Virus record (IMG/VR): IMGVR_UViG_3300030100_000755
Coordinates: 19,987 to 83,986 of that record
Length of the DNA stretch: 64,000 nt
Direction: 5' to 3' (one strand)
DNA from: a virus
Taxonomy: Duplodnaviria; Caudoviricetes
Notes under the pieces: model-generated
The model's database searches: none
What the model saw: only the letters and a program-made list of their open reading frames with translations
What the model was told of the DNA's origin: nothing
Shown here: positions 39,453 through 56,173 of the stretch, piece after piece
How positions within the stretch are numbered: the stretch's first letter is position 1
How the letters are laid out: each line of letters opens with the position of its first letter
Position numbers and translations under genes: made by a program

Positions 39453-39553
39453 GTTTTGGGAAGGTGGTTACGGGTCTGAACAGGCTTAGCTAAAAACGTA
39501 GGCTACGATAGCACACCAAACTGTTACCGCTGCTTAACCATTTTCACCAAAGC
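39453..39553 (+). ncRNA. Structured RNA 1 with tRNA-like closing stem and 3' ACCA
   Basis: GAAGGTGGTTA pairs with TAACCATTTTC, followed by ACCA; outer flanks shared with the elements at 54425 and 56050. Confidence 0.55.
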
Positions 39554-39632
39554 GTTATACGGGTTGCACATTTGTAGCTGCGCTTTCGATTTACCCACGT
39601 TATGGGTATACATAATATTACTTCCTTATTTT

Positions 39633-39655
39633 GCCCACCTCGCGTGGGCTTTTTT
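39633..39655 (+). terminator. Intrinsic terminator closing the non-coding locus
   Basis: GCCCAC-CTCGC-GTGGGC followed by T6. Confidence 0.8.
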
Positions 39656-39714
39656 ATATGCGTTCAATAATTATAAAAGTTCATTATAATTGTACATAAA
39701 ATATAAATGAACAG

Positions 39715-39743
39715 TTGACGTAGTTAGTTAGTGGGTGTATTGT
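39715..39743 (+). promoter_or_regulatory. Sigma70-type promoter TTGACG-N17-TATTGT
   Basis: Consensus spacing, with TG upstream of the -10 box. Confidence 0.65.
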
Positions 39744-39774
39744 TGTTGGGCTTACTTAACAGAGGAGAAAAATT

Positions 39775-40047
39775 ATGAGCAATCTTATTGATATGATAAT
39801 TTCAGACCTATTTAAGAATAGGTGGTCTGGTAATTTAGCAGAAGGTAATCTTGATGAACAAAAGAGACAATTGTTTAAGACATTAAAAGATCAAACAATG
39901 GGTTATTGGTCTGGTCATACGGCATACCATATCGCAGTAGATGGTGGTTTTCTAATAGATGGTAAAAGATGTACATATAAAAAAGTTACTCGTCTTGGCG
40001 CTATTTTTATTGAGCAATATTTAAAGGAGAATGATTATGTTTGTTAA
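39775..40047 (+). CDS. Hypothetical protein
   Basis: AGAGGAG SD; first gene after the promoter. Confidence 0.65.
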   Translation: MSNLIDMIISDLFKNRWSGNLAEGNLDEQKRQLFKTLKDQTMGYWSGHTAYHIAVDGGFLIDGKRCTYKKVTRLGAIFIEQYLKENDYVC

Positions 40048-40996
40048 ATTTGGAAAGATAGAGCAGTTCAGAAATGTAGTAAAACAAGTTAGGGATTATT
40101 GTTCTTATCATAATAAGCCCTTACCAACAATAGATTTTAATGGCACTGTTAAATTACACGGCACTAATGCCGCAGTCGGTGTTGATGAGTACGGAAATCT
40201 ATTTTGTCAATCTCGTTCTCGCGTTATAACACCTGATGACGATAACTTTGGGTTTGCAAACTTCGTTATGGATAATAAACATTACTTTGAATCACTTTTA
40301 GGATTCTTGTGTTATAGAGAAGATGTTGATTCATGTATTTTATATGGGGAATGGTGTGGAAGTAATATTCAAAAAGGTGTAGCTCTATCAGAACTTGATA
40401 AAATGTTTGTTGTGTTTGACGGTAAAGGTTTTCGTGGTGGTGATGAGTTTAAATTGAATGTTAACTTGATTGACCTAGACAATCAGTATAACGTATATAA
40501 CATCAATGAGTTCCCCACTTATAACGTGACGGTGGATTTCAACAACCCCGAAGATATTGTTAATACCTTAACCTCTATTACAGAACGTGTAGAAAAAGAA
40601 TGTCCAGTTGGTAAACATTTTAATGTATCTGGTGTAGGAGAAGGTGTGGTATGGACTTCTGATTTTAAAGGTAATGATTTGCGCTTTAAAGTAAAAGGGG
40701 AAAAGCATTCTGTATCTAAAGTTAAGAAATTGGTATCTGTCGATCCAGAAGTTGTAGAATCTGTTAAAAACTTTGTTGATTATGCGGTGACAGAAAATAG
40801 ACTAGAACAAGGATTACAAGAAGTTGGATTAGATCAAAATAAAATAGGAATGTTCATTGGTTGGGTTAATAAAGATATTAACAAAGAGGAAAAAGATGTT
40901 CTTGATAAAAATGGATTGACCATGAAGCAAGTTGGTGGTAAGGTTTCGGATAAAGCAAGGAATTTTTACCTAAACAAGCTTAATAATTTTAAATAA
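40031..40996 (+). CDS. RNA ligase 2-like (Rnl2 family)
   Basis: Motif I VKLHGTN, LYGEWCG, GEGVVW, FKVK. Confidence 0.82.
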   Translation: MIMFVKFGKIEQFRNVVKQVRDYCSYHNKPLPTIDFNGTVKLHGTNAAVGVDEYGNLFCQSRSRVITPDDDNFGFANFVMDNKHYFESLLGFLCYREDVDSCILYGEWCGSNIQKGVALSELDKMFVVFDGKGFRGGDEFKLNVNLIDLDNQYNVYNINEFPTYNVTVDFNNPEDIVNTLTSITERVEKECPVGKHFNVSGVGEGVVWTSDFKGNDLRFKVKGEKHSVSKVKKLVSVDPEVVESVKNFVDYAVTENRLEQGLQEVGLDQNKIGMFIGWVNKDINKEEKDVLDKNGLTMKQVGGKVSDKARNFYLNKLNNFK

Positions 40997-41013
40997 AACA
41001 AAGGGGAATAATT

Positions 41014-41571
41014 ATGACTAAACAACCATACCTAATCGTGGATTTAGAGACACTTGGTACTAAATCTAATTCAGTGATCATGTCTATTGGCGCTGTACTA
41101 TTCACAGAGAAAGGTATTGCTAAAGATAAGTTCTATACTAATATAGACATTAAATCATGCATTGATAAAGGTCTCAACGTTGATGGTGATACATTGATGT
41201 GGTGGATGGAGCAGAGTGATACAGCGCGTAATTCTTTAAATGGTAATCGACTACCACTAGATAAAGCATTGCAGAAACTAAAGAATTATGTCTTTAAAAA
41301 TGCTAAGACTTATGATGTTCATCCTGTCGGTAACAGTGCAAGATTCGATATGGGTCTGCTAGAAAATGCTTATAATGCTTGTGGGCAGGAAGTATTCTGG
41401 AAATTCTGGATGGAGCGCGATTACAGAACGTGGAAATCATTAAATGGTGCATTACCTATCTCAAGACATAATGGTTGCGATTCTGCTACACACAATGCAT
41501 TGCAGGACGCTATTGAGCAAGCTGAACATGCTATTGAGCTTAATAAACAATTCGGTGGTATATTGTTATGA
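41014..41571 (+). CDS. DEDD 3'-5' exo(ribo)nuclease
   Basis: DLETLG, GNSARFD, HNALQDA. Confidence 0.85.
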   Translation: MTKQPYLIVDLETLGTKSNSVIMSIGAVLFTEKGIAKDKFYTNIDIKSCIDKGLNVDGDTLMWWMEQSDTARNSLNGNRLPLDKALQKLKNYVFKNAKTYDVHPVGNSARFDMGLLENAYNACGQEVFWKFWMERDYRTWKSLNGALPISRHNGCDSATHNALQDAIEQAEHAIELNKQFGGILL

Positions 41572-41720
41572 GTGGGCGAGGTTATAAATTACTAGTGGCG
41601 TTATTGCTATTATGTAATGTGTGTACGCTGGTTTATATTGGTTATCAAAATAATAATTCACAAGTTGTTGACCAAGAGAAAACTACATGCTATCTTCCAT
41701 CTGTAAACTATAAATTTTAA
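41568..41720 (+). CDS. Small membrane protein (50 aa)
   Basis: Own translation MSGRGYKLLVALLLLCNVCTLVYIG...; ATGA-coupled. Confidence 0.5.
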   Translation: MSGRGYKLLVALLLLCNVCTLVYIGYQNNNSQVVDQEKTTCYLPSVNYKF

Positions 41721-41737
41721 CGAGGAGTGATGTTATT

Positions 41738-42388
41738 ATGAGTGATATTAAGCTTATATTATTAAATGGGGGAAAGGGTTGCGGTAAAAGTGTATTAACA
41801 CAACACTTGACTCCTAGATTATGTGGAAATGAAGCACGTTGTAAAGACAAGTTATTTGAATTAACAATGAGTTTATTTGATGTAAAAGCTGGTGATTTCT
41901 GGTCAATCTATAATGACAGGGAGCGCAAAGAAAAGCCTGATGATTTATTCACTGTTAAAAGACCACAAGCTATTATGTTATATAATATGATTGGTGGTGA
42001 AGATTTATATAATCGTTGTGCTTTATCGAAACACGATGTTCCATTATCAGTTCGTGAGGCAATGATTTATGTATCTGAACTGGTAGTTAAACCTACTTTT
42101 GGTAGTGATTATTTTGGTGTTAGTCGCGCTAAGAATCTATTGTCTGGTGTTTATGTTGACGACAGTGCTGCGTTCGTGGATGAAATTAAGCCAGCTATTG
42201 ATAAGATTGGCATGAATAACATATTACTTGTTAGAATTTATGGTCGTGGTGATTTTGAAGGTGATAGTCGTAATTATTTACCAGATCATATTGTTACTAA
42301 TGTTGTTGATGTGTATAATAACAAAAGTGAATCTGAGTTCTTAATTGAAACAACAGATAAAATTGAAGCGTTTTTAAGAGGAGAGTAA
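41738..42388 (+). CDS. Deoxynucleoside monophosphate kinase-like
   Basis: N-terminal P-loop LNGGKGCGKS; REAMIYVSE..VKP.FG; DSR. Confidence 0.7.
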   Translation: MSDIKLILLNGGKGCGKSVLTQHLTPRLCGNEARCKDKLFELTMSLFDVKAGDFWSIYNDRERKEKPDDLFTVKRPQAIMLYNMIGGEDLYNRCALSKHDVPLSVREAMIYVSELVVKPTFGSDYFGVSRAKNLLSGVYVDDSAAFVDEIKPAIDKIGMNNILLVRIYGRGDFEGDSRNYLPDHIVTNVVDVYNNKSESEFLIETTDKIEAFLRGE

Positions 42389-42390
42389 TA

Positions 42391-42786
42391 ATGACACCAG
42401 AACAGAAAATTAAGCATATTATTATACACCAAACAGCGTTGTGGAAAGAGGTATTACCACCAACTGTTACCGATGTTAATGTTGACGATTTGTACGATGA
42501 ATTAGTAGAACATGATGAACATTGGGATGCTTTGTATGACGTGAGAGAGGGTGAAGTTGAAACAAACCTACCTTGTCCAAGTTCACGTCACTATGAGAGT
42601 AAATCAGTAGCTAGTAGCACACCATCTGGTGAATGGGTTGGTTGGACTTATTGGTACGGTGGTGGTAAATATTCTGAACCAGAGGATATTGATTGGATGA
42701 GCGAGGCTTATGATTTAGACTGTGTTGAAACAGAAAGGCTCGTGACAGTTAGAGAATTTAGTAAGAGGGAGAGTAATTATGACTAA
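42391..42786 (+). CDS. Hypothetical protein
   Basis: ORF with SD. Confidence 0.6.
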   Translation: MTPEQKIKHIIIHQTALWKEVLPPTVTDVNVDDLYDELVEHDEHWDALYDVREGEVETNLPCPSSRHYESKSVASSTPSGEWVGWTYWYGGGKYSEPEDIDWMSEAYDLDCVETERLVTVREFSKRESNYD

Positions 42787-43357
42787 ACCATTATTAGCAC
42801 TAGATTGCGATCAAGTAATCACCGACTATGTATCAGGGTTTACAGCATTTGTTATTAATCATGGGTATGGGTTAAATCTGGATAATGATTTCAGCAGCTA
42901 CGACATTAGCACCTACTTTAACGGGTTGTCGCGAAATAAATGTCGTGATTTAATTGTTAAATATAATGATACGGAATCACCACCTGTTTATGGTTATCTG
43001 AAAAATGTTATACCATCATTGTTGCAAAAATACGACATTGTAATCGTTACAAGTCACGGTGGTGGTGACTATGCAAGAAAACAACGTCTTGATATGTTAT
43101 TAAGTTTAGGTTTTACGGATGTATTTATTTTAGGTTTAGGTGAAAACAAGCAAGGTATTCTTGAGGAATTAAAGCCTGATATTTTCATTGATGATAGCCC
43201 TGAGCAATTATTAGCAGGGATTAATGCTGGTGTTGAGCAAGTAATTGCATTAGAATACCCATACAATCGCGATTGGGTTGATGATTATAACCGTAATCGT
43301 AGCATTGGTGATAAGAAACGAATTAAGAGTATTAAAAGTTTAAAGGAGATTATTTAA
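42779..43357 (+). CDS. HAD-family 5'(3')-deoxyribonucleotidase-like
   Basis: LDCDQV, VTS, K, FIDDS, YPYNR. Confidence 0.75.
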   Translation: MTKPLLALDCDQVITDYVSGFTAFVINHGYGLNLDNDFSSYDISTYFNGLSRNKCRDLIVKYNDTESPPVYGYLKNVIPSLLQKYDIVIVTSHGGGDYARKQRLDMLLSLGFTDVFILGLGENKQGILEELKPDIFIDDSPEQLLAGINAGVEQVIALEYPYNRDWVDDYNRNRSIGDKKRIKSIKSLKEII

Positions 43358-44268
43358 TGAGTAGACCTAGTGCTAAAGTTATTGCACACAGTGAAGCGCC
43401 TAATGGTGAGCAGTTGATTACATTGGAAATTGAGTTGCATAGGTTTGTATTACCTGAGAATAACACACACAGATCTTTTAGTAGAAACTATGCTAGTTCT
43501 AGGGCTTGTCCAGTAACTAGTCAATTAGAACAAGTTGCTAATGATCCAGCAATGCCTGTCCATTGGGGTAAAAACCAATCTGGTATGGTTGCTGATAAAG
43601 AATTGTCAGGGATGGAGAGAAAACTAGCCGAGATGATCATATTAGGAATGCGAGATGCTTGCCTAAATGGGGTTAAACAGCTTGCTGAATTAGGTCTTCA
43701 TAAGCAAGTATCTAATCGCTACATTGAGCCTTGGCTTTGGACAAAGGGGGTTATAACAACAACCAAAGATGAATTTGACGCATTCTTTAGATTACGCTGC
43801 CATAAAGATGCACAACCTGAGATTAAGTTATTAGCAGAAAGAATGCGCGATGCTATTAATTCGAGTGTTTCTGTTAAGTTGAAAGTAGGTGATTACCATT
43901 TACCATATATTGAGTGTTATAAACCATTAGGATCAGGTAAGCAAGTGTTCCCTGTTGGTAATGGTACAAGTGAGGTGTATTCGTTAGAAAATGCCGTGAA
44001 GATTAGTACATCATGTTCAGCACAAGTGAGTTATCGTAGATTAGATACGTCATTAGAAAAGGCATTGAAAATTTACGATATGCTTAATTTGCCGAGTAAT
44101 GGTGAGTTTTCAGATGAGCCCGGTCATTTCTCTCCCACAGAACACCAAGCTAAAGTTGTGGATGTAACAGATGGTTATATGAGTAGTGGGAATTTCCATA
44201 GTAAAGTATTCTGGCAATATCGCAAGGCACTAGAATCAGGTACTGAAAATAAATTCTTGACAAATTAG
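43357..44268 (+). CDS. thyX: Flavin-dependent thymidylate synthase
   Basis: THRSFSRNYASSR motif; FFRLR..KDAQPEI. Confidence 0.8.
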   Translation: MSRPSAKVIAHSEAPNGEQLITLEIELHRFVLPENNTHRSFSRNYASSRACPVTSQLEQVANDPAMPVHWGKNQSGMVADKELSGMERKLAEMIILGMRDACLNGVKQLAELGLHKQVSNRYIEPWLWTKGVITTTKDEFDAFFRLRCHKDAQPEIKLLAERMRDAINSSVSVKLKVGDYHLPYIECYKPLGSGKQVFPVGNGTSEVYSLENAVKISTSCSAQVSYRRLDTSLEKALKIYDMLNLPSNGEFSDEPGHFSPTEHQAKVVDVTDGYMSSGNFHSKVFWQYRKALESGTENKFLTN

Positions 44269-44285
44269 ACATACTTATTTAATCT
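44257..44285 (+). promoter_or_regulatory. Sigma70-type promoter TTGACA-N17-TAATCT
   Basis: Near-consensus; upstream of the RNA ligase 1 / PNKP operon. Confidence 0.65.
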
Positions 44286-44288
44286 TAG

Positions 44289-44317
44289 AGGCGTTGGCGT
44301 TGTTCAGCGCCTTTTTA
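44289..44317 (+). terminator. Intrinsic terminator after thyX
   Basis: AGGCG...CGCCT followed by TTTT. Confidence 0.55.
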
Positions 44318-44334
44318 TTATGAGGAGATAAATT

Positions 44335-44916
44335 ATGGAAACTATTAAATACCTAAATGAATTTGGTCTTGATAAACTACAACAAGAATTGGGTATTAAG
44401 GTTAGTCAAAACGAAAATTATCCTGATTTATACGTACTTAATTATGACCAAATAAAAAGTCCTAAATATCATCCAATAGTGATTGAGTGTCGCAGTCTTG
44501 TTGTAAGACTTGAGGGTGATGAATATTTCGTAGAAAGTCGTAGTTTTGATAGATTCTTTAACTATGGTGAGATTGAAGGTCAACCAGACGATGTTGAAAA
44601 TATGGTTGCTTACCAGAAGATTGATGGCAGTTTAGTATCAGTATGGAAAAATGAAAAATATGGCTGGCTATATCGCACACGTTCTATGATTATGCCTTCT
44701 GTTGAGGTATGTATTAATGGTTATAAATTATCTTGGAAAGAGTTAATTGAGAGTGTTATCAATTTTGATAAGTTAGAGGAAATTCCTATAATTGACCACA
44801 CTTATATTTTCGAGGTAGTTAGTCCAGAAAATAGAGTAGTAACCCCTTACTCTCAGAGAGAAGCTTTTTTATTATCCATAAGGAGTAATATTGATGGAAA
44901 CTACAGAAAAAGATAA
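44335..44916 (+). CDS. RNA ligase 1 (T4 Rnl1-like), N-terminal part
   Basis: ECRSLV, SFDRFFNYGE, motif I QKIDGS, YIFEVVSPENRVV; stops before motifs IV and V. Confidence 0.85.
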   Translation: METIKYLNEFGLDKLQQELGIKVSQNENYPDLYVLNYDQIKSPKYHPIVIECRSLVVRLEGDEYFVESRSFDRFFNYGEIEGQPDDVENMVAYQKIDGSLVSVWKNEKYGWLYRTRSMIMPSVEVCINGYKLSWKELIESVINFDKLEEIPIIDHTYIFEVVSPENRVVTPYSQREAFLLSIRSNIDGNYRKR

Positions 44917-45581
44917 AATTTGCTATGTGTACCATATATGCAGAGGTTCTGACATATTTAACTATAGTTGTGGGTATATTGGTGTATCATTCTACCCACA
45001 AAAAAGATTAAACTTCCATAAAAATAGAAGCGAAAATCCACATTTAAAAAATGCATTCTCGACTTATAATGATATTATAATGTACTGCATAATGTGTTCA
45101 AAAGAATCCGACTTTTGTTATACATTTGAGATGTTACTCAGGCCATACAAAAATATGGGGTGGAATATAAATGTTGGGGGCATACAACCACCAAACCCGA
45201 AAGGTACTAAAAATTGTATATCTAATTTACCAGCACACAAGAGACGTAAAAATTTTAAACATTCTGAAGATACGAAAGAATATTTAAAATTTTTATAAAA
45301 ATAACAAGGAGTATTTTTCGGACATAAAATTGGGAGAAGCTAACCCAATGTGCAGGAAGTTTGGGCAATCAAATCCAAATTTTGTTTGGTGGTACTGTAC
45401 CAATGATGGTATATTTGATAGCTCCACAACAATGGGTTTATACTATAAGGTTGATCGTAATACGATATTACACAGATACAAAAATTTAGATATTCCTATA
45501 AAGAGGAGTAGGTGGCACCCAAAACAAATTTGGGGTAAGACTTGGAGAGAGCTTGGTTGGATTAGATATAGGAGTGAAAAT
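44891..45581 (+). mobile_element. GIY-YIG homing endonuclease inserted in Rnl1, frameshifted near 45288
   Basis: VYHI...GYIGVS...RLNFH in 44891-45298; the +1 frame is open from 45288 and holds GEANPM..KFG.SNPNF and GKTWRELGW. Confidence 0.75.
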
Positions 45582-46100
45582 ATGAATTATGAAGAAATAT
45601 GTGAAAAATTAGGATGTCAACCCCCTAGAATTATTAGATTTACTAACAAGGAGGATATATTAGAACAGGTGCAAAACTTGCCAGAGTTACAGGAAGGTTT
45701 TGTCCTATTTGACAGAGAGGGTAAGCCTACGCTTAAAATAAAATCGCAGCAATACGTTAGATTTCATAGAATGCGCGGAGAAACTAGACCAACACCTAAG
45801 CGAATTATGGATATATTGTTTATTAATGAGCAGGACGAGTATTTATCCATATTCCCAGAGGATAAACCTTTATTTCAACCTTATGAAAATGCGTTTCAAT
45901 CAACATCTTATGATTTTGACCATTTGTGGAGTAAATTTGGAGATATTGCAGACCAAAAAGAGTTCGCCATGAATGTTAAACAATATTCTGTATGTGGATT
46001 ATTGTTTAAGAAGAAACAGCAGCCAGAGTTAACGTTTTTGGATTGCTTTAATATGCTGCTGACTGCTACTAAATATAAATTATTGGAGAAATATGTATGA
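45582..46100 (+). CDS. RNA ligase 1, C-terminal part
   Basis: AGGAG SD then ATG 45582; motif IV QEGFVL, motif V LKIKS..YVRFH. Confidence 0.8.
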   Translation: MNYEEICEKLGCQPPRIIRFTNKEDILEQVQNLPELQEGFVLFDREGKPTLKIKSQQYVRFHRMRGETRPTPKRIMDILFINEQDEYLSIFPEDKPLFQPYENAFQSTSYDFDHLWSKFGDIADQKEFAMNVKQYSVCGLLFKKKQQPELTFLDCFNMLLTATKYKLLEKYV

Positions 46101-47029
46101 AAAATAAAATCATATTAACAATAGGTGCTAGTTGTTCAGGTAAAACAACATGGGCACAAGAATATATTGATGATCACGCGTTAGGTAGTGTAATTAGTCT
46201 GAATAGGGATGACATTAGATTCATGTTGTTCACAAACGGCACTAGGGACTGGACAAAGTATAAATTTAATAATAAAAATGAACAAGCGGTAACAGAATAT
46301 ATTGATAGTAGGGCTTTAGAATGCATTGCTCGTGGTTCTGACATTATAATCAGCGATACAAACCTAAACCAAAAAATACGTAATAAGTGGAAACAATTCG
46401 CTGACGAACACGATTACGAATACGTTGAGCAAATATTCCCTTGTGATTGGAAAGAATTGGTTAAACGAAACGCACAAAGACATGGTGGTCTATCAGAATC
46501 ACTGTTATGGTCGCAATATAAGCGTTTCATGCAGCAATATGGTTATATTGGTGATAACAAAGTTGAAGTATATCAAGAACAGCGTAAATTAGAACATTGT
46601 ATCATAGTTGATATTGATGGTACTGTGGCTGACATGCGAGGAGTTCGTAAGCCTTTTGAGTGGGATAAAGTACATTTTGATAAACCGCGCAGTGAGATTA
46701 TTGCTATGGTTGAGGGGTTAGCTATTAGGAATGGTCATGTTATTTTCATGTCTGGTAGGGATGGTTCTTGTTATGATTATACGTTAGAATGGATTGAAAA
46801 GCATATCACAGCAGGATGGGATGATTACTTTAAGTATGACCTAATAATGCGTGAAGAAGGTGATATGCGCAAAGATGATATTGTTAAATATGAGCTATAC
46901 AACCAGTTCGTTAAAGATACATATAATGTTGCTGCTGTAATTGATGACAGAAAAAGTGTTATTCGATTGTGGTCTGTGTTAGAATTACCAAACATTATTG
47001 ATGTTGGTGGATATCAAAATGAGTTTTAA
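46097..47029 (+). CDS. pseT: Polynucleotide 5'-kinase / 3'-phosphatase
   Basis: GASCSGKT, LNRDDIR, IISDTNL, HAD motif DIDGT, SGRD, DDR. Confidence 0.92.
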   Translation: MKNKIILTIGASCSGKTTWAQEYIDDHALGSVISLNRDDIRFMLFTNGTRDWTKYKFNNKNEQAVTEYIDSRALECIARGSDIIISDTNLNQKIRNKWKQFADEHDYEYVEQIFPCDWKELVKRNAQRHGGLSESLLWSQYKRFMQQYGYIGDNKVEVYQEQRKLEHCIIVDIDGTVADMRGVRKPFEWDKVHFDKPRSEIIAMVEGLAIRNGHVIFMSGRDGSCYDYTLEWIEKHITAGWDDYFKYDLIMREEGDMRKDDIVKYELYNQFVKDTYNVAAVIDDRKSVIRLWSVLELPNIIDVGGYQNEF

Positions 47030-47046
47030 ATTTGAGGAGATGAATT

Positions 47047-47599: not shown

Positions 47600-47605
47600 T
47601 AATTT

Positions 47606-47949: not shown

Positions 47950-47986
47950 AATACTTATAGTGTTAAAAATTACAGAGGAGTGAACT

Positions 47987-48232: not shown

Positions 48233-48248
48233 GTAGGAGGAAATAATT

Positions 48249-48692: not shown

Positions 48693-48693
48693 C

Positions 48694-49083: not shown

Positions 49084-49084
49084 T

Positions 49085-49216
49085 ATGGAATTAGAAAGAT
49101 ATTCACATAAACAGTTGCAAGTATTGGTTAAAGATCTATATAATGAAATTGATAACTTGAAAGTGTACGTCAAAGAGTTGGAAGATGAACTAGAACAAAT
49201 TGATAATGGGGAGTGA
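49085..49216 (+). CDS. Small coiled-coil protein (43 aa)
   Basis: Own translation MELERYSHKQLQVLVKDLYNEIDNLK... Confidence 0.5.
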   Translation: MELERYSHKQLQVLVKDLYNEIDNLKVYVKELEDELEQIDNGE

Positions 49217-49222
49217 TGAGAT

Positions 49223-50065
49223 ATGATTACATTAATAGCCGATAATAAAGAAATGCCCGTAGAATGGGTAGAGTTTAGTGATGGTGCGTTGACTTGTAAG
49301 GTAGATGTTGGTGTTGTAGAAACGAAACATAATCTACATTTCAATGTTTGTCCCACTACACCAGTCAAACAGGTTTCAGAAGAGTTGATAGCTGTTATGG
49401 CTGCCTTGTGGGAGTTTGAATTAATTTTAACAGATATTAAATGTGTGCTGCATCTTCCTTACTTACCTTACGGTAGAGCAGATCGAGTATTCGAGGAAGG
49501 TAATCCTAATATGTTACGTTGGTTCTTAAACACAGTAGATGGATTCCTGTTTGACGAAGTGGTTTTAACCGATGTGCATAATCCAGCATCATTAACTAAA
49601 TTACAAACACCTTATCGTGAAATTAACCAAGTATCTTGTTTCCAGTACACTTGTAAACGACACAATGGTTATGTACAAAAATGGGATTATGTGATTGCTC
49701 CCGATAAAGGTGCTAAAGATAAAGCTAAGTCCATTGCAGATATGTTAGGTGTTCCTATAATACAAGCATCGAAAGAGAGAGATATTTCTACAGGTCGTAT
49801 TATTAAGACAGAATTAGATACAACATTGTCTGTAGGAAGTCGTGTAATCATCTGTGACGATATTTTAGATGGTGGTGGTACATTCATCCCTCTTGCAGAA
49901 GAACTACGCTCACAAGGCTGTACAGTTGATTTATATGTAACTCATTTAATTGCTGCAAAAGGGCTTGACATTTTTAAAGGTTTGTTTGATAATATCTACT
50001 GTTACCAGACAGTAGCTAAATATGTTAACAAACAAGACGTAATGAATTTTAATTTAGGAAAGTAA
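49223..50065 (+). CDS. Ribose-phosphate pyrophosphokinase-like protein (candidate Adps of NARP1)
   Basis: PYLPYGRADR, DVH, IAPDKGA, CDDILDGGGTF. Confidence 0.88.
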   Translation: MITLIADNKEMPVEWVEFSDGALTCKVDVGVVETKHNLHFNVCPTTPVKQVSEELIAVMAALWEFELILTDIKCVLHLPYLPYGRADRVFEEGNPNMLRWFLNTVDGFLFDEVVLTDVHNPASLTKLQTPYREINQVSCFQYTCKRHNGYVQKWDYVIAPDKGAKDKAKSIADMLGVPIIQASKERDISTGRIIKTELDTTLSVGSRVIICDDILDGGGTFIPLAEELRSQGCTVDLYVTHLIAAKGLDIFKGLFDNIYCYQTVAKYVNKQDVMNFNLGK

Positions 50066-50075
50066 GGAGAACATT

Positions 50076-51842
50076 ATGACAATTACATTCGGGCCACTAA
50101 ACACAGACGGTTATAAGACGTTCCATAAAGATGCTTATGCTGAAGGTATTACACAAGTTTACTCAAACTTTACCTCGCGTAATGGTCGTCTTAGTAACAT
50201 CCCTACTGAACAATCAGACGGTAAAGTAGTATTCGTTGGGCTACAATATTTCATTAAAGATGAACTACAAAGTAACTGGAATGATTCTTTCTTTAATATC
50301 CCGAAAGAATTTGCGATTAAATATATACAACGCCACCTTACCGCTTATCTTGGTAAAGAATATAATGTAAGTAACTTTGAAGCTTTACACGACTTAGGGT
50401 ATCTCCCTATTGAGATTAAAGCACTACCAGAAGGAGTATCTGTACCATACGGTGTTCCCCCTGTAACGTTCCGTAATACCCACCCTGATTTTGCTTGGTT
50501 GACTAATTACCTAGAGACTATTTTCTCTACACAGAATTGGCCTATCCAAACGTCAGCGACTACAGCTAAACAGTATCTACGTAACATCACTAATAGTTTT
50601 AAACGTACTGGTGGTGATATGAACATGATACCGTTTATGTGTCACGATTTCAGTTTTCGTGGGATGTTTGGTAAAGAAGCCGCTATGATGAGTGGTTTTG
50701 GTCACTTAGCTGCTGGCAACTGCGGTACTGATACTATCCCTGCTATTATCTTTGCAGAAGAATACTACAACGCGAATGTAGAAAAAGAACTAGTAGGTGT
50801 ATCAGTTCCAGCTACAGAGCATTCTACTACAACTAGTTATATTATGGGTATGGTAGAACGAGAAGGTATTAGTAAACTAGAGGCAGAAGTTAAGTATGTA
50901 GAATACTTATTTGATAAAGTCCCTACTGGTATTCTATCTCATGTATCAGATAGTTTTGATTTCTTCAAGTTTGTAACTGAAGGTCTACCTCTTTTAAAAG
51001 ATAAGATTCTAGCACGAGACGGTACATTTGTTATTCGCCCTGATAGTGGAGATCCTGTAGATATTCTTTGTGGTATTAATAGTAATTTTAAAGAAGTCGA
51101 TCCTGATTATTATTTTGGCTCTAGTTTCGATGATTGGAAAAAAGCTGTTGCAGAGGAGATGGATGAAATTTTCAGACGCAACCTAGAAGCGACAAATCCA
51201 CATAGTAGAGAGACACATGTTTGGAAAGGTGAATATGGTGTATACGAAGTTACTTATGAGCCAGAACTTAATCGACACGATAAGACTTACTACTACGTAG
51301 ATAACTGGGATTCAACAGTATCTTACTGTGAGTTCAAACAAATAGAAGAAACACCAGAATCTAAAGGTCTTATCGAATTACTATGGAATATGTTCGGTGG
51401 TGTAGAGACAGAACAAGGTTATAAATTACTAGACTCTCATGTTGGTGCTATCTACGGAGACTCTATCACTCTAGAACGTCAAGCTGAAATTATTAAGCGT
51501 CTAGAAGCTAAAGGTTTTGTTCCTAACGTAGTGCTTGGTGTAGGCTCATATTCTTACCAATATGTAACTCGTGATACACATGGTAGTGCAGTGAAGGCAA
51601 CATCAGTGGTGTGGGATGGAGACCAAGTAGATGTGTGTAAAGACCCTGCTACAGACTCTAAAAAGAAGTCAGCGAAAGGTCTGTTACGTGTAGAACTTGA
51701 AGATGGTGAATACGTGCTTTATGACCGACAAACACCTGAGCAAGAAGAACAAGGTGAGTTACAAACAGTATTCAAAGATGGTGAATTACTTATAGAACAT
51801 TCTTTAGAGGATATTCGTCAGCGAGTTAAGGCTTCAATTTAA
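50076..51842 (+). CDS. Nicotinamide phosphoribosyltransferase-like protein (candidate Namat of NARP1)
   Basis: TDGYK..H, HDFSFRG, VPATEHS, VIRPDSGDP, IYGDSIT, KDPATD. Confidence 0.92.
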   Translation: MTITFGPLNTDGYKTFHKDAYAEGITQVYSNFTSRNGRLSNIPTEQSDGKVVFVGLQYFIKDELQSNWNDSFFNIPKEFAIKYIQRHLTAYLGKEYNVSNFEALHDLGYLPIEIKALPEGVSVPYGVPPVTFRNTHPDFAWLTNYLETIFSTQNWPIQTSATTAKQYLRNITNSFKRTGGDMNMIPFMCHDFSFRGMFGKEAAMMSGFGHLAAGNCGTDTIPAIIFAEEYYNANVEKELVGVSVPATEHSTTTSYIMGMVEREGISKLEAEVKYVEYLFDKVPTGILSHVSDSFDFFKFVTEGLPLLKDKILARDGTFVIRPDSGDPVDILCGINSNFKEVDPDYYFGSSFDDWKKAVAEEMDEIFRRNLEATNPHSRETHVWKGEYGVYEVTYEPELNRHDKTYYYVDNWDSTVSYCEFKQIEETPESKGLIELLWNMFGGVETEQGYKLLDSHVGAIYGDSITLERQAEIIKRLEAKGFVPNVVLGVGSYSYQYVTRDTHGSAVKATSVVWDGDQVDVCKDPATDSKKKSAKGLLRVELEDGEYVLYDRQTPEQEEQGELQTVFKDGELLIEHSLEDIRQRVKASI

Positions 51843-51854
51843 TTTAACTATCAG

Positions 51855-51885
51855 AAACCCGACCTTATCAATCGGGTTTATTTTT
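51855..51885 (+). terminator. Intrinsic terminator
   Basis: AACCCGA...TCGGGTT followed by TATTTTT. Confidence 0.65.
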
Positions 51886-52030
51886 ATGAGGAGTGATATG
51901 AACACTATGAACTACAAACACATTGCATTAGGTACATTAATCATAGCTACAATATTAGGAATATGCGTTGTTGGTATATTAATCGCCATAATTATGTTAT
52001 TTATGTGATGATAATTGGTCACATATTAAA

Positions 52031-52585
52031 ATGTTACAGTATTTTGATAGGAGGGATTTGATGTACCTTGAACGAGTCATAAGGTTTGCTTGTGATGCAC
52101 ATATAGGGCAAAAACGTAAATATACAAATGAGCCTTATGTGATACACCCAATGAATGTGTGCAAATTATTACGCCAACATTATCCAGATGCAACTAGAGC
52201 AATGGTCTATGCTGCTATCTTACATGACACAGTAGAAGATACACACGTTACGCTAGGCGATATTGCTGATGAATTTGGCTACGATGTTATGGAATTAGTT
52301 GAATGGCTCACAGACATATCAGTGAAATCTGATGGTAATCGAGCAAAACGTAAAGCCATTGATAGACAGCATATTAGTGAAGCACCATTTGAAGCGCAAT
52401 TAATTAAAGTTGCAGATATTATGGATAATACAAAAGATATTGTTGACAATGATGAGAACTTTGCTAAAGTGTATTTAAACGAGGTTAGACAGACACTAGA
52501 TGTAATGAAACCTGATGTTAAAGAACAGGAATTGTGGTGTTTAACCAGTCAACAAATTGATGATGGAATGAGGAGATTGGTATGA
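52031..52585 (+). CDS. HD-domain hydrolase, SpoT/Mesh1-like (small alarmone hydrolase-like)
   Basis: AH.GQKRK...EPYVIHP, AILHDTVED, LIKVADIMDN. Confidence 0.85.
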   Translation: MLQYFDRRDLMYLERVIRFACDAHIGQKRKYTNEPYVIHPMNVCKLLRQHYPDATRAMVYAAILHDTVEDTHVTLGDIADEFGYDVMELVEWLTDISVKSDGNRAKRKAIDRQHISEAPFEAQLIKVADIMDNTKDIVDNDENFAKVYLNEVRQTLDVMKPDVKEQELWCLTSQQIDDGMRRLV

Positions 52586-52773
52586 AAGAAATACAACTCG
52601 GTGACAGAGTAGCACTCCCTAATCACCCGTTCTTATCTAATGGTTATGTTAAGCGAATTTATAATGACTTAAATATGTACGTAATTAAACTTGACGATAT
52701 GTCTGATCCAAGATACGCTTACAATACAGATGAAGTAATTATGAACAGAAATGATTTGGAGGTAATATTATGA
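52582..52773 (+). CDS. Hypothetical protein
   Basis: ATGA-coupled. Confidence 0.55.
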   Translation: MKEIQLGDRVALPNHPFLSNGYVKRIYNDLNMYVIKLDDMSDPRYAYNTDEVIMNRNDLEVIL

Positions 52774-53108
52774 CAATTAACAGTAACGCACAAAAATGGG
52801 TGGATGCTTTACGTAGTGGTGAATATAAGCAAGGTGTTGGTCAGTTGTATAATCAAGACCTAGATAAATACTGCTGCCTTGGTGTTGCTTGTAAAGTTTA
52901 TGAGAAAGAGACGGGTTATAACTTAGGTGTTGATAGTGGTGGTACGCTAATTCGTTATCTTCAAGTAAAAGATTGGCTCTCTTTGAGAACAATTTGTGGG
53001 GATTATATTAATAATTCATTGGTAAATTTAAATGATGGTGACGAGTTATCCTTCAGTGAAATTGCTGATGTTATTGAATCAAATCCAGAGGGTTTATTTT
53101 ATGACTAA
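52770..53108 (+). CDS. Conserved phage hypothetical protein
   Basis: KWVDALRSGEYKQG...YCCLGVAC...LND...SF.EIAD pattern. Confidence 0.7.
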   Translation: MTINSNAQKWVDALRSGEYKQGVGQLYNQDLDKYCCLGVACKVYEKETGYNLGVDSGGTLIRYLQVKDWLSLRTICGDYINNSLVNLNDGDELSFSEIADVIESNPEGLFYD

Positions 53109-53280
53109 TACCACTAAGAAATTACTACAACCATTACAGGCAAAGAAAGCACATCTGAGTGACTACATTAAAGATTTACAAGCAGAATTAAAGAGTGCTA
53201 AGATTGAGCTAGATGAAGTTAACACTACCATCAACAAATTAAATGATAGTGATCAAATGATATTAGATTTAGGAGAATAG
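53101..53280 (+). CDS. Small coiled-coil protein
   Basis: Likely start ATG 53101. Confidence 0.55.
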   Translation: MTNTTKKLLQPLQAKKAHLSDYIKDLQAELKSAKIELDEVNTTINKLNDSDQMILDLGE

Positions 53281-53282
53281 CT

Positions 53283-53660
53283 ATGAATAATCAAGAATTT
53301 AAGCAATCTGTTAGTGGTGCTATTGATAAGCTGGAAAAACAAGGTAAGGTTAGCGTTCGATTTACCGAAAACGGTAATGACGGTTGCTTTTATTATGATG
53401 AGAAAAATAACACGTGTTGTATTGTTGGTATGATGATGCCGAATAATGATGTTCGTAAAGAAGCCGATGATAATGAATTTGGTTCTGGTATTATATACAT
53501 GTATAAGTATGGTTCTATTGAATGGGCTCAGCAATTTACATTACAGCAAGTGAATTTCCTCGCTAAACTACAACGATTACATGATGCTTTTGAGCTAGGT
53601 GACTCATTTTCTGATCTAATTAGTAGTATGAGAAAAGAGTTGGAAACTTATGACCAGTAA
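53283..53660 (+). CDS. Hypothetical protein
   Basis: GCFY...CCIVG...LQRLHD pattern. Confidence 0.6.
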   Translation: MNNQEFKQSVSGAIDKLEKQGKVSVRFTENGNDGCFYYDEKNNTCCIVGMMMPNNDVRKEADDNEFGSGIIYMYKYGSIEWAQQFTLQQVNFLAKLQRLHDAFELGDSFSDLISSMRKELETYDQ

Positions 53661-53780
53661 TTATTGGCGTGGTTATCGCAAAGGGTATTATGTCGGTATG
53701 ATTTGGGGTGCTTTATCTACTATTGTGCTATACACGCTATTATTACTGTATTATTCTGGTGTTATTTATACGTTTTAATG

Positions 53781-53809
53781 TTGACACAGTGAATATTATC
53801 GTCTAAGAT
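53781..53809 (+). promoter_or_regulatory. Sigma70-type promoter TTGACA-N17-TAAGAT
   Basis: Near-consensus. Confidence 0.65.
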
Positions 53810-53841
53810 ATAATGACATTAACAAATGAGGAAGAAATATT

Positions 53842-54363
53842 ATGAAAATTGAAAAAGGTAATTACATTCGCGCAGCAGAGTTTAGCAATGAAGAAATTGA
53901 CGTATTTATTGGTCTCACTGGTATTGATGTAAATGATTCAGATAATGATAGCGAGGCGTTTGAAGGTTGGGAAAGTTATGGTCTTGATACTGATGGTGAT
54001 TTAGCTAATTGGAATAATCCCGAATACTTTGGTAATTGTTGCACTCATCACAAAGACATTACGCAAGAATTTCGTTATTATATTGACACGTTGAGTGTTG
54101 AAAAGAAAGATGATGATGAGTGGACACATACTTATAGCGATTGTGGGGTGAGGAAGGATTGTATTTTAATTCATTATAAACCTGATATAAATGGTCAGGT
54201 ATTAGTCCTGAATAGATACGGTGAATATGTATTGACTGGTACTGTTAAATTAAAACCCATCAAGCAGACGATAAAACCAAGTGCAGCATGGTCGCTAGTA
54301 TCTGGGCAAGTATTGTCTATACACGAATTTAATGAGAAATATGACGTAGTTGGAAAAGACTAA
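53842..54363 (+). CDS. Hypothetical protein
   Basis: GAGGAAG SD; acidic ORF. Confidence 0.65.
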   Translation: MKIEKGNYIRAAEFSNEEIDVFIGLTGIDVNDSDNDSEAFEGWESYGLDTDGDLANWNNPEYFGNCCTHHKDITQEFRYYIDTLSVEKKDDDEWTHTYSDCGVRKDCILIHYKPDINGQVLVLNRYGEYVLTGTVKLKPIKQTIKPSAAWSLVSGQVLSIHEFNEKYDVVGKD

Positions 54364-54424
54364 CTGGTCAGAGTTGTTAAGTGATTGGTTAGGGTGTAAG
54401 GTTTAAACGTCCCTAGCAATAGGG

Positions 54425-54516
54425 CGTTTTGGGAATGACTCTATAAGTGGAGTGGATGGGTTAACTAACTAGTCAATGGTTGCCCGGCGGACATACCGTG
54501 AGTCATTCCCAAAGCG
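54425..54516 (+). ncRNA. Structured RNA 2 (17-bp closing stem, cloverleaf-like interior)
   Basis: CGTTTTGGGAATGACTC pairs with GAGTCATTCCCAAAGCG; internal GGGTTAAC/GTTGCCC and GCGG/CCGT hairpins. Confidence 0.55.
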
Positions 54517-54534
54517 AACAAAGGAGATTGAAAA

Positions 54535-54936
54535 GTGAGTAAAAGTTTAAAACAAATGGCATACGATACGATAGAGGCGCATCAAGAAACCATAGCTGAT
54601 CTACGCAATCAATTAGCAAAGGCTAATGAGCGTGTGAGGGAGTGCCATAAAGAGCTTGTTAACAGGCATGATCAAATACAAGAACTGAGACAAGAAAATG
54701 GAGAATACGCAATTCTTATTGCGAATTTAGTTAGACGTGCCGACGTTAAAACCGATTTACTGCAAAACCCTAAATTTGAAAAAGCTAGCGTACAGTTAAA
54801 CAAATTCGCCATAGAAAAGAGTATTGAGGGCGTTCAGAGAGTTTTAGATTGTGGAGAATTAAACCTTTCTCAAGGAGACATTGACACGATTAGGCTAATT
54901 CGAGAACAACTACGCAAGGAGCAATCCAATGACTAA
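54535..54936 (+). CDS. Mosaic coiled-coil hypothetical protein
   Basis: Contains LAKANERV, NKFAIEK and EQLRKEQ blocks shared with neighbouring genes. Confidence 0.65.
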   Translation: MSKSLKQMAYDTIEAHQETIADLRNQLAKANERVRECHKELVNRHDQIQELRQENGEYAILIANLVRRADVKTDLLQNPKFEKASVQLNKFAIEKSIEGVQRVLDCGELNLSQGDIDTIRLIREQLRKEQSND

Positions 54937-55204
54937 AAAACACACAGGCTATTACGCATACATGCCGGACTCGCATGAAGAGGATGCTAGTTTAGAGATG
55001 GTTGATTTTGAGGAATTCGCAAAAACTACGGTTAGCCAAGAAAGCCAGCAAGAAACAAAAGAGTCACTGGAAGATGTAATGAAAGCGCTGGAGGTAGTAC
55101 AAGCGTTTGCAATTCGTCATTGGAAGCCTTGCCTTAGAGACTGCTGCGGAGATGCTATTGATGATGTTGAGGAAATGTTAGAACAACTACGCAAGGAGCA
55201 ATAG
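54929..55204 (+). CDS. Hypothetical protein
   Basis: Ends EQLRKEQ. Confidence 0.6.
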   Translation: MTKKHTGYYAYMPDSHEEDASLEMVDFEEFAKTTVSQESQQETKESLEDVMKALEVVQAFAIRHWKPCLRDCCGDAIDDVEEMLEQLRKEQ

Positions 55205-55370
55205 TAAGAATGACCAACGTCACGCCGCATTCAAATGTGGTGACGAATATAATTACATTGTTGAAGCCATGGATACTGAGATAACCGACCGTGCGTTTCA
55301 GCAATACGTTTACGAGCAACGCTACCTAACAAAAACCGTTGCAACAAAATGGAGCATTGAAGAACAATGA
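55201..55370 (+). pseudogene. 56-codon ORF missing its start codon (AT-AGT instead of ATG AGT)
   Basis: Restoring one G gives an ATGA-coupled MSKNDQRHAAFKCG...EEQ* that abuts the next ATG. Confidence 0.5.
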
Positions 55371-55828
55371 ACAAACAACAGTTACTAGAACTCGTGGTTA
55401 GACCGACACTTGCAGAAATCCCGAACGGTCCATCTGGTGAAACGGCGATTATGATGATTATAGCGCATGAGTCACGACGTGGTGAATTCCTTAAACAATG
55501 GCCAAAAGGTCCAGCGTGGGGATTGATTCAAATGGAAGTAGCGACACACGACGACACGTGGTTACACGGCGACTCTATATGGAAGAATGCGGTTAAGTTG
55601 GGGATTATTGATATTAAATCTAACTCTAACAGAGTACACCCACACCACTGTCGTCTAGCGTGGGATTTACGTTACAACGTATTTATGGCACGTCAACGAC
55701 TGTTCATGAAACCTGGCGCTTTACCCACCGACTTAGCACGACTGTCACGCTACCTTAAAAAGCACTGGAACAGTGTCGGTGGCGCAGCGTCTGAAACGTC
55801 GTATATGGACGATTACCTCAAATGGTAG
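55367..55828 (+). CDS. Lysozyme-like / lytic transglycosylase-like protein
   Basis: IIAHES (candidate catalytic Glu), GPAWGLIQME..THDD, YLKKHWN. Confidence 0.6.
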   Translation: MNKQQLLELVVRPTLAEIPNGPSGETAIMMIIAHESRRGEFLKQWPKGPAWGLIQMEVATHDDTWLHGDSIWKNAVKLGIIDIKSNSNRVHPHHCRLAWDLRYNVFMARQRLFMKPGALPTDLARLSRYLKKHWNSVGGAASETSYMDDYLKW

Positions 55829-56040
55829 GGTTAACGTTAAGCGAGTATTTCGCCAACAAACCCACGCTGTCACTGAAACAACGACGCGTTAAAGTTTGTT
55901 GGGTGTTGAATAACGCTAAACTTTACCCGTCCAATAAGACCGTAGCACACCGCACAGGTCTAACAGTAAACCAAGTTGAATATGTGTTCCGCACTTTCCC
56001 CGAAGTGCGAGAAATGAGAAGGAGACTGAAACGTTCCTAG
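55822..56040 (+). CDS. Small basic HTH-like protein
   Basis: SNKTVAHRTGLTVNQVEYV. Confidence 0.5.
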   Translation: MVGLTLSEYFANKPTLSLKQRRVKVCWVLNNAKLYPSNKTVAHRTGLTVNQVEYVFRTFPEVREMRRRLKRS

Positions 56041-56056
56041 TAATAGGGCGTTTTGG

Positions 56057-56173
56057 GAATGGCTGTAGCTCAGTGTGGATGTTCTGCATATCAGCAGGGC
56101 TAGCGCAACCACTAGGAAGGAGCGCATGTTGCGGCATGAGGTCGCAGGTTCAAATCCTGCCAGCCATTCACCA
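56057..56173 (+). ncRNA. tRNA-derived RNA 3 with expanded D arm, defective anticodon loop and 3' ACCA
   Basis: TAGCTCAG A-box, GAGC, AGGTC, T arm GCAGG-TTCAAAT-CCTGC, 9-bp acceptor stem, ACCA. Confidence 0.75.

Follow-up and report, generated by a model that had tools for sequence, protein, structure and literature searches.

Three elements of a marine phage genome with one closing helix and unrelated interiors point to a modular structured-RNA family

Introduction

What kind of element has the same two ends at three places of a phage genome and a different interior at each of them? The question is raised by a stretch of 64,000 nucleotides (nt), hereafter the window, which is the last 64 kb of the 83,986-base-pair (bp) IMG/VR virus record IMGVR_UViG_3300030100_000755, and whose short DNA matches and shared genes lead to Alteromonas phages. 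A first-pass annotation of the window had noticed three dispersed intergenic elements, here called E1, E2 and E3, with flanks that pair with each other, and had suggested that one processing or acceptor-like scaffold carries different RNAs. Our best reading is that the three elements are members of an undescribed modular structured-RNA family found in phages of Alteromonas and related bacteria. The units follow one plan, in which a hairpin of free sequence (P0) precedes a closing helix of 15-26 bp (P1), and P1 encloses an exchangeable interior of 40-135 nt (the cargo).

The three elements share a closing helix around unrelated interiors

The elements lie on the plus strand at 39453-39554 (E1), 54425-54516 (E2) and 56050-56178 (E3), within one base of the places first given for them. 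Their common flanks, GUUUUGGGAA...UUC(A)CCAAAGCG, pair with each other to make a closing helix of 16-19 bp around unrelated interiors, and the inner stems are complementary as had been described (GGTGGTTA/TAACCATT, TGACTC/GAGTCA and TGGCTG/CAGCCA). Exact copies of the 5' arm GTTTTGGGAA occur three times in the window, all on the plus strand, at 39453, 54426 and 56050; with one mismatch allowed there are eight copies, against a mean of 4.8 in shuffled sequence. The 3' arm CCAAAGCG is likewise found exactly three times, all on the plus strand and each 70-120 nt 3' of a GTTTTGGGAA copy (shuffle mean 0.74). No further copies were detected in the window by looser patterns or by the covariance model, nor in the remaining 20 kb of the genome by looser patterns. 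When each element was folded with its flanks, the z-scores were -2.5 (E1), -5.4 (E2) and -3.9 (E3), and the covariance model, R1, scored them at 53.5, 47.7 and 50.5 bits, respectively, on the plus strand.

E1 and E2 show no tRNA features and match no Rfam family at E <= 10. E3 is matched by the Rfam tRNA model (RF00005) with 45.5 bits against a gathering score of 29, so that E3 alone is tRNA-like, as the annotation had it; apart from this tRNA match nothing in Rfam fits the elements, in agreement with its remark that it did not recognize a described family in them. The tRNA-like cargo of E3 (56059-56168) has an acceptor stem, U8A9, a D stem, a variable loop and a canonical T arm (56144-56160), the last of which equals the T arm of a host tRNA-Pro over 20 nt and is otherwise generic. 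It differs from a tRNA in that the acceptor helix is extended by the flanks to about 17 bp, that the D loop carries a 44-nt insert with a hairpin of its own (56081-56100), and that the short arm at 56125-56138, in the place of the anticodon arm, has a loop of 4-6 nt; the Rfam alignment likewise inserts 44 nt in the D loop and places 4 nt where a 7-nt anticodon loop is expected. ARAGORN in its normal mode found no tRNA gene in E3. Its intron mode offered a tRNA-Ser(act) at 56059-56169 with a 32-nt intron, which we rejected as an artefact of the D-loop insert being forced into an intron. The Rfam score, the D-loop insert, the short loop and the lack of an ARAGORN call together suggest that E3 is a tRNA-shaped body without decoding capacity.

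Relatives are found in Alteromonas phages

Blind scans of viral contigs with both arms gave more than 230 loci, nearly all of them chance, and only L080, L090, L103, L172 and L220 extend the helix, each with a different interior. A context search with the tail and leader of E2 led to L248, L249 and L251, and one with the 3' domain of E1 to L256, L257, L260 and L262 together with 17 metagenome loci. BLAST identified the cultured Alteromonas phages P24, PB15 and XX1924, and a genome scan found a contig of Alteromonas sp. IB21 with two copies 300 nt apart, which looks prophage-borne, as well as two metagenome-assembled genomes (MAGs). The relatives are thus spread over IMG/VR and metagenome contigs, three cultured phages and one Alteromonas prophage. 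In a sample of 151 genomes from the family of the host, the element was confined to the genome that carries this prophage. Two other searches were discarded: a protein search with the open reading frame (ORF) upstream of E2 gave one distant, useless locus, and a scan of genome contigs with the 3' tail of E1 returned chance matches only (a Sphingobacterium rplF-like coding sequence and one MAG).

We also looked for a phage protein that the carriers might have in common. When all ORFs of the window genome were compared by tblastn with P24, PB15 and the other carriers, only the small ORFs of the E2/E3 region and tail-fibre genes matched, and no common RNA-binding candidate emerged. Pfam and PHROG searches with the ORFs neighbouring the elements gave no informative function.

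The closing helix covaries and belongs to the plus-strand RNA

The variation of P1 among the relatives is informative because the stem was no part of the context queries. We aligned 27 distinct elements over 16 specified pairs and compared them with 500 shuffles. Standard pairs fill 96.1% of the P1 cells against 79.3% after shuffling, 78 cells are changed on both sides against 25.8, and the covariation score is 0.466 against 0.151; none of the 500 shuffles reached the observed value for pairing, for double-sided changes or for the covariation score. Sliding the 3' partner by 1-3 columns lowers the pairing to 32-53%. Pair 7 is G-C in 11 elements and A-U in 16, three to six pair types occur at each of pairs 11-16, and the number of contiguous pairs per element ranges from 15 to 26 in the anchored trace.

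The pairing is that of an RNA. G.U makes up 64 of the 529 P1 pairs (12%), for which the opposite strand would have A.C mismatches, and R1 scores the reverse strand 17-20 bits lower (30 bits for E2 on the minus strand). Since the units are also constantly co-oriented with the genes, these findings indicate a plus-strand RNA structure rather than a DNA repeat. The fold is thus well supported and the observation goes beyond chance, as neither the shuffle nor the slide controls come near the covariation of the 27 distinct homologues; the shared scaffold that the annotation had inferred is supported by its covarying closing stem. The worry that came with that claim, namely that the flanks might be only a DNA recombination repeat around unconserved interiors, is answered by the covariation and by interiors that are conserved between loci and are not junk between DNA repeats.

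The upstream hairpin is maintained in a similar manner. Every relative has a hairpin of variable sequence, P0, ending 0-6 nt 5' of GUUUUG, and this hairpin is kept through full replacement of its sequence in at least six different versions. P0 is always GC-rich with GUUUUG directly after it, and its loops are often GNRA. At one locus (L256:2925-3150) the P0 region can pair with the 3' domain, which would lengthen the closing helix to a rod with about 45 bp (-102.8 kcal/mol, z = -9.6). We considered such a long P1 extension as a feature of the family and rejected it, because it is impossible with the other P0 types that stand before the same 3' domain.

The base of P1 is nearly fixed and contains a bulged purine

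The lowest 10 bp of P1 are nearly fixed, with G-U-U-U-U-G-R-G-A-A paired to U-U-C-(A)-Y-C-A-A-A-G-C; the pairs in order are G-C, U.G, U-A, U-A, U-A, G-C, R-Y, then the bulged A, then G-C, A-U and A-U. Pairs 1-6 and 8-10 are invariant or nearly so, pair 2 being an invariant U.G. In 22 of 28 traces the 3' strand has a bulged A exactly after pair 7 and then C/U-C-A, and in L220 an unpaired G takes its place. The positions that correspond to C75 and A76 of a tRNA end are invariant and the 74-like position is C or U.

These details modify the observation that two of the elements end in ACCA right after the stem. The letters are indeed found in E1 and E3, but the CCA itself pairs with UGG of the 5' flank and the A is the bulge, so that ACCA is the bulged A plus the 3' strand of pairs 7-5. 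The E1-type copies of siphophages read A-UCA, showing that CCA is not conserved and that Y-C-A after an unpaired purine is. We also looked among the host tRNA genes for mimicry of the flanks and found no leader-trailer pairing of the scaffold kind. The anticodon arm of host tRNA-Pro(UGG) (L362) contains GTTTTGGGTA, which matches the scaffold 5' arm GTTTTGGGAA at 9 of 10 positions; since most relatives have GTTTTGAGAA as their 5' arm, the match is probably due to chance.

Cargos are conserved domains that reassort with their flanks

The 47 instances of the cargo fall into 16 types at 70% identity, plus the type of L220/L172, and the cargo of each window element is the sole known member of its own type. 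One type occurs in 13 loci, including L080 and L090, where the unit forms a 5' untranslated region (UTR), and P24, L256, L260, L272 and L277, where it belongs to a non-coding RNA; another occurs in 9 loci across both settings, and a type other than that of L080 and P24 is common to L249 and L256/L257. The same cargo is found with different P0 and downstream sequences, and the same P0 or downstream sequence with different cargos. E2 and E3, only 1.6 kb apart, have an identical P0, P1 base and Shine-Dalgarno sequence (SD), yet their cargos are unrelated, and in many phages two units with different cargos lie about 300 nt from each other. Within a type the cargo identity is about 90% across unrelated flanks, and one inner cargo hairpin covaries (CACAUUC/GAGUGUG versus UGCAUUC/GAGUGCA). 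From this conservation and the covarying hairpin we conclude that the interior is not drifting filler but a set of distinct selected RNA domains. The proposal of one scaffold with different cargo RNAs is therefore supported in a wider form, with at least 16 interior types, each conserved and reassorting independently of the flanks; the exchange of the cargo domains takes place exactly at the conserved arms. A tRNA-type feature, the arm GGUUCGAAUCC, is carried by L251 as well.

The cargos do not seem to be directed against their own neighbourhood. Complementarity between a cargo and its cognate flank was no better than that with foreign flanks (mean rank 13.4 of 24 downstream and 13.0 upstream), and the longest exact complements were 6-9 nt for cognate and 6-10 nt for non-cognate pairs. 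The antisense model was rejected after long duplex energies, exact complements and windowed duplexes had all given no cognate signal; strong duplexes of one cargo, f, with the P0 of the next unit (-36 and -41.6 kcal/mol) were not reproduced in the other contexts of the same cargo. The cargos of E1 and E2 gave nothing above chance against an Alteromonas genome. In the 13-locus type, an 18-nt stretch, GATGTAACGCAAGAAGCG (L256:2671-2688), is identical in the sense direction to L375:988-1005 of Alteromonas sp. IB21, on the coding strand of a host ORF resembling the extracytoplasmic function sigma factor RpoE; the E-value is 0.024 in one of four such searches, and the match may be due to chance, to capture of host sequence or to mimicry of an mRNA segment.

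Units occur in two genomic settings

The units stand either as a 5' UTR that ends 4-5 nt before an SD (E2 and E3) or as the front half of a terminator-ended non-coding RNA (E1). E1 sits in a 450-nt gap free of ORFs and is followed by about 55 nt of conserved structure and then by a strong intrinsic terminator, and because of this arrangement it looks like part of a terminator-ended non-coding RNA. Its P0 (39429-39447, AGCCU/GGGCU) lies 6 nt 5' of the closing helix; P1 has 18 bp with a bulged A39546 and surrounds an 81-nt cargo, as supported by fold, alignment and R1. The 3' domain (39555-39608) is common to the E1-type relatives and contains a hairpin, H2 (39561-39579), an invariant GCGCUUUCG (39580-39588) and a second hairpin, B (39592-39608), whose pairing is kept through two double-sided changes relative to L103. 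The RNA would end at the terminator GCCCAC..GUGGGC plus U6 (39633-39655), for which the relatives have the equivalent CCCCGC..GCGGGGUUU. A terminator scan also calls the P0 of E1, and it does not call that of E2 or E3, where only 4 U follow.

The invariant GCGCUUUCG is able to pair with AAAGCGUU (39549-39556), and this pairing would compete with the base of P1. RNAalifold proposes the corresponding helix AAAGCGUU/GGCGCUUU in the E1-type RNAs, where all of its positions are invariant and therefore give it no covariation support. In the window (39549-39588) and in the homologous stretch of 10 relatives, GGCGCUUU stands 25-30 nt 3' of AAAGCGUU and the two enclose a covarying hairpin.

The genes downstream of E1 encode an RNA ligase, a 3'-5' exoribonuclease and Pnkp, which had suggested a link with RNA repair. 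This link does not extend to the relatives: the E1-type metagenomic copies precede replication genes (DnaD-like/HTH_36 and DnaB), not an RNA ligase, and RNA-repair genes were not seen near the scaffold in siphophages that carry it. That E1 stands next to RNA-repair genes is a peculiarity of this phage. In P24, a lambda-like temperate phage, the unit is located within an 800-nt non-coding stretch between a cro-like gene and replication genes, and in PB15 and XX1924 it comes after nin-like genes and before small genes leading to terminase. Thus the siphophage units mark junctions between gene blocks, and their orientation is always that of the genes. The P24 stretch (L286:640-1480; MK241539.2 ~45470-46300, minus strand) appears non-coding and highly structured. 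It contains two terminators, one of them strong, along with one scaffold unit and other conserved hairpins; a hypothetical CDS annotated there, QIV64695.1, overlaps with the scaffold RNA and may be spurious.

E2 is preceded by a 44-nt leader (54364-54407) that follows directly on the stop codon of the ORF before it and whose DNA sequence is conserved in L248, L249, L251, L090, PB15 and XX1924. The leader contains TTGTTA-17 nt-TAAGGT, a weak sigma-70-like pair on which the promoter scan makes no call, and that it is a promoter is only a guess. P0 of E2 (54408-54426) is a 7-bp hairpin with a GCAA loop that abuts P1, and hairpins of this type are built from other sequence in XX1924 (CGCCUUG-GCAG-CAGGGCG) and L080 (ACCCUA-GAAA-UAGGGU). 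P1 of E2 has 16-17 bp and no bulge, and encloses a 70-nt cargo. The 3' tail GAACAAAGGAGAUU (54517-54537) includes the SD AAGGAG at 54521-54526, and a 133-amino-acid (aa) ORF begins with GTG at 54535; the same tail stands before unrelated ORFs in L080, L090, L248, L249 and PB15. E3 is arranged similarly. Its P0 (56032-56050) has a GUAA loop and contains the stop codon of the ORF 55822-56040, P1 has a bulged A56170, and the 3' tail (56179-56199) carries an SD at 56183-56188 before the ATG at 56197 of a 77-aa ORF. In both units it is the tail GAACAAAGGAGAUU that supplies the SD of the next ORF. All these features are on the plus strand.

A processing scaffold is tentatively favoured

How could one constant scaffold be of use with so many interiors? 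Our preferred answer, held tentatively and with a little less than even confidence, is that the base of P1 may be a recognition or processing site of the RNase P or RNase III type that releases the cargo RNAs from early transcripts. The platform for a host RNA-processing enzyme would be this base, which is fixed, weak and AU-rich and has a bulged purine and YCA; that the recognizing factor is a host enzyme is the simplest assumption, since the carriers have no phage protein in common. The seven weak, AU-rich pairs at the bottom, the unpaired purine and Y-C-A resemble a discriminator-CCA end that is hidden by the pairing of leader and trailer. RNase P is known to act on RNAs other than tRNAs, among them regulatory RNAs of phages, 4.5S RNA, tmRNA and operon mRNAs (PMC4919922). 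Since the base resembles a masked CCA end and RNase P cuts non-tRNA phage RNAs, we favour a tRNA-type 5' cut by RNase P at the bulge junction with subsequent 3' trimming, and a cut by RNase III across the P1 helix would be a close second. Either cut would free the cargo hairpin from early polycistronic transcripts as a stable small RNA and separate the messages on its two sides; at E2 and E3 the downstream fragment would begin just before its own SD. The released cargos, including the tRNA-like body without an anticodon, would then act in trans. A bolder form of the proposal, possible but doubtful, would make the acceptor-like stem a plug-and-play launch pad recognized by the host tRNA-processing machinery, into which at least 17 small structured RNAs, for instance mimics of the tRNA body and other modules that bind proteins, have been slotted to be cut out early as decoys or regulators in trans, and which is traded between otherwise unrelated phages (an 84-kb lytic phage, lambda-like temperate phages and others) by recombination at the 10-bp arms.

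Several observations weigh against a processing site. Between the bulge and the top of P1 there are 8 to 19 bp, depending on the element, and most cargos have no T-loop, so the usual measuring cues of RNase P are absent. Four elements (E2, L256b, L257 and L273) have no bulge and a paired C instead, CCA reads UCA in 16 of 27 elements through a compensatory change from G-C to A-U, and "CCA" is always base-paired to the 5' flank and would need opening for RNase P. A helix of 15-26 bp with one bulge could suit RNase III, which cuts about two turns of double-stranded RNA, equally well. The positions of the units could point instead to a role in cis in transcription or translation, since they lie between cro-like genes and replication genes, downstream of nin-like genes, immediately 5' of an SD or ahead of a terminator. 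Finally, the mutually exclusive helix AAAGCGUU/GGCGCUUU and P1 base of the E1-type RNAs could possibly form a switch upstream of the terminator, and in these predicted structures the region looks like a switch rather than a processing site.

Taken together, such positions are the strength of an explanation that we nevertheless consider rather unlikely, namely that the unit acts only in cis at operon junctions, with P0 and P1 as punctuation or insulation of the transcript and the cargo as filler or as the site of a phage regulator, like boxB for N. It might do so as a weak terminator hairpin with a U-tract, as a 5' stabilizer or insulator of the ribosome-binding site (RBS), or as a switch of the downstream terminator. 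The junctions between gene blocks in P24, and in PB15 and XX1924 those between nin-like and late genes, fit this, as do the E2-type units that stop 4-5 nt before the conserved SD of unrelated ORFs, the E1-type units with their terminator and competing helix AAAGCGUU/GGCGCUUU, and the GC-rich P0 that always precedes GUUUUG and often has a boxB-like GNRA loop. Filler, however, would not be expected to show about 90% conservation across unrelated contexts and covarying hairpins of its own, to reshuffle independently of both flanks, or to differ completely between E2 and E3 where P0, P1 base and SD are identical; moreover, the terminator scan makes no call for P0 of E2 and E3, no boxA-like sequence lies 5' of P0, and the competing helix is wholly invariant and so lacks covariation support. 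A riboswitch was rejected, as the interiors are of at least 16 unrelated types without a conserved ligand-binding core and the competing helix is confined to E1-type RNAs, again without covariation. If the stem were instead a bait, with the N-YCA end mimicking an acceptor stem and the cargo tuning the specificity, the elements could be decoys for host defence or toxin enzymes that attack tRNAs. The real tRNA elbow features in E3 and L251, a stem end with a bulged purine and then YCA, a cargo diversity within phages of one host genus that suggests an arms race, and the RNA ligases, Pnkp and 3'-5' exoribonuclease of the window phage would all suit such decoys. We regard this as improbable, since no element has a 7-nt anticodon loop and thus none offers a target to an anticodon nuclease, 14 of 16 cargo types are not tRNA-like, and the siphophages with the scaffold showed no RNA-repair genes nearby.

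Only a slight chance is left for immunity RNAs of the C4/CI type, that is, leader antisense RNAs cut by RNase P whose variable loops pair with sites on their own transcript and cause premature termination. The topology is alike, with a closing stem and variable inner hairpins in a leader upstream of a terminator and replication genes, the interiors could set the specificity, and the L220/L172 cargo contains CCUCCUUU, which is complementary to an SD 15 nt downstream. Against this, the Rfam C4 model was unmatched at E <= 10 or E <= 5 in the window, the relatives and P24, cognate complementarity is not above the non-cognate level (exact complements of 6-9 versus 6-10 nt, mean rank about 13 of 24), and cargos and flanks recombine freely, the opposite of what co-varying pairs of antisense and target would do. 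A purely DNA-level feature, such as inverted repeats serving as recombination linkers, an attC-like hairpin site or a miniature inverted-repeat transposable element (MITE), with no role for RNA, would account for an exchange of cargos exactly at the 10-bp arms, where recombination does take place, and for the recurring DNA blocks of which the E2/E3 region is built. We give it very little credence: G.U pairs make up 12%, and in duplex DNA pair 2, an invariant U.G, would be mismatched, with A.C on the other strand; the units always run in the direction of the genes; the arms GTTTTGR...YCAAAGC (plus) and GCTTTGR...YCAAAAC (minus) fail the attC consensus RYYYAAC...GTTRRRY, although no search was aimed at an integron integrase; the interior of a MITE stays constant and the interiors here differ; and compensatory changes keep the pairing in P1, P0 and the cargo hairpins. 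Finally, scarcely any credence is due to a Y-RNA-like function of the YrlA type, where the stem would bind Ro60/Rsr and further factors would be recruited by the variable module, which is sometimes tRNA-like. Both are modular in the same way, with a long bulged stem joining the two ends, a variable module and a tRNA-like domain without a normal anticodon arm. Nevertheless, no TROVE/Rsr gene was found, PF05731 being unmatched in the whole 83,986-bp record while the control genomes were detected, the stem reads GUUUUGRGAA in all 27 elements without a GGUCCGA-like Ro-binding motif, Rfam Y RNAs are unmatched, and most cargos are not tRNA-like.

Comparison with known RNAs and meaning of the family

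C4 of P1/P7 and CI of P4 are leader-embedded phage small RNAs with paired ends and inner hairpins that differ between phages. The C4 antisense RNA (RF01695) and P4 CI thus resemble our units in having a closing stem and variable inner hairpins within an operon leader. The scaffold family differs in that it has no Rfam match and no adjacent cognate targets, that whole interiors of 40-135 nt and not just loops are replaced, and that these reassort freely with the flanks; in addition, C4 is released by RNase P (PMC4919922), and for our units processing is what we infer. Bacterial Y RNAs (YrlA/Yrn1) are alike in a conserved bulged stem and a variable effector module able to mimic tRNA (PMC4201824), and Yrn1 of D. 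radiodurans even has a 6-nt "anticodon" loop, while their stems carry the GGUCCGA-like Ro-binding motif (PMC4201824). The units here differ from them in the lack of an Rsr gene, in the sequence of the stem, in cargos that are mostly not tRNA-like, and in that many units are a 5' UTR before an SD.

The T4 species 1 and 2 RNAs are tRNA-like stable RNAs in phage tRNA clusters. The R1.1-type sites of T7 and the N-leader hairpin of lambda, between nutL and the start of N, are RNase III processing hairpins of early mRNAs. They are like our units in being long intercistronic helices with a small bulge or internal loop just 5' of an RBS, and in the lambda N-leader a small GNRA-like hairpin (boxB) precedes the RNase III hairpin, as P0 precedes P1; in contrast to our units, they are simple hairpins without large conserved inner domains or a fixed 10-bp sequence common to different phages. 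The PeSL cassettes of T4-type phages and the Correia and ERIC repeats, some of which fold in mRNA and are cut by RNase III, are also short repeated regulatory sequences between small genes that mark modular exchange in plastic regions. There, however, the repeated unit is the whole element, and here only the arms and tails are constant and the interiors are distinct conserved RNAs. No described family was found to fit; the nearest by their logic are the C4/CI RNAs, which RNase P processes, and the Y RNAs with their modular build, and defining features of each were looked for and are missing here.

The family adds to marine phages a structured RNA that is absent from Rfam and for which a covariance model is in hand. 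Its evolution is unusual, as a constant scaffold is combined with a shuffled library of conserved interiors across quite different phages of one host genus. If the cargos are released, they would form a phage repertoire of trans-acting RNAs and possibly a class of RNA-based counter-defence or host take-over, and the scaffold would be a natural analogue of the synthetic cassettes that release RNAs from tRNA or ribozyme flanks. If the units act in cis, they would define an operon-junction control element of Alteromonas lambda-like phages, in which we know of no nut- or Q-type system having been described. The family is testable now because its carriers P24, PB15 and XX1924 are in culture.

Sequences around the units

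The region that contains E2 and E3 (54535-57010) is rich in repeated DNA blocks, such as 54601-54643, 56236-56278 and 56631-56673, which lie in the ORFs after E2 and E3 and in the ORF 56427-57008; the 77-aa ORF after E3 has sequence repeats in common with the other two. Another block, at 54903, 55180, 56403 and 56981, ends one gene and gives the SD of the next. Homologues are found in P24, L080 and L248. Further downstream (57202-57408) is an ORF of 68 aa, for which a single membrane helix is predicted and which ends in a basic tail; it has no Pfam or PHROG match, and its homologues, with 40-84% identity, lie a few hundred nt 3' of E2-type units in PB15, XX1924 and L248.

Elsewhere in the window, a 2268-aa protein and its neighbours on the minus strand (7823-15769 and 30951-31589) show 32-44% identity to the tail or host-recognition region of P24 (about 13.3-18.3 kb). 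Host-recognition modules are reported to be common to unrelated Alteromonas phages (PMC10579305), and the likeness to P24 fits that report.

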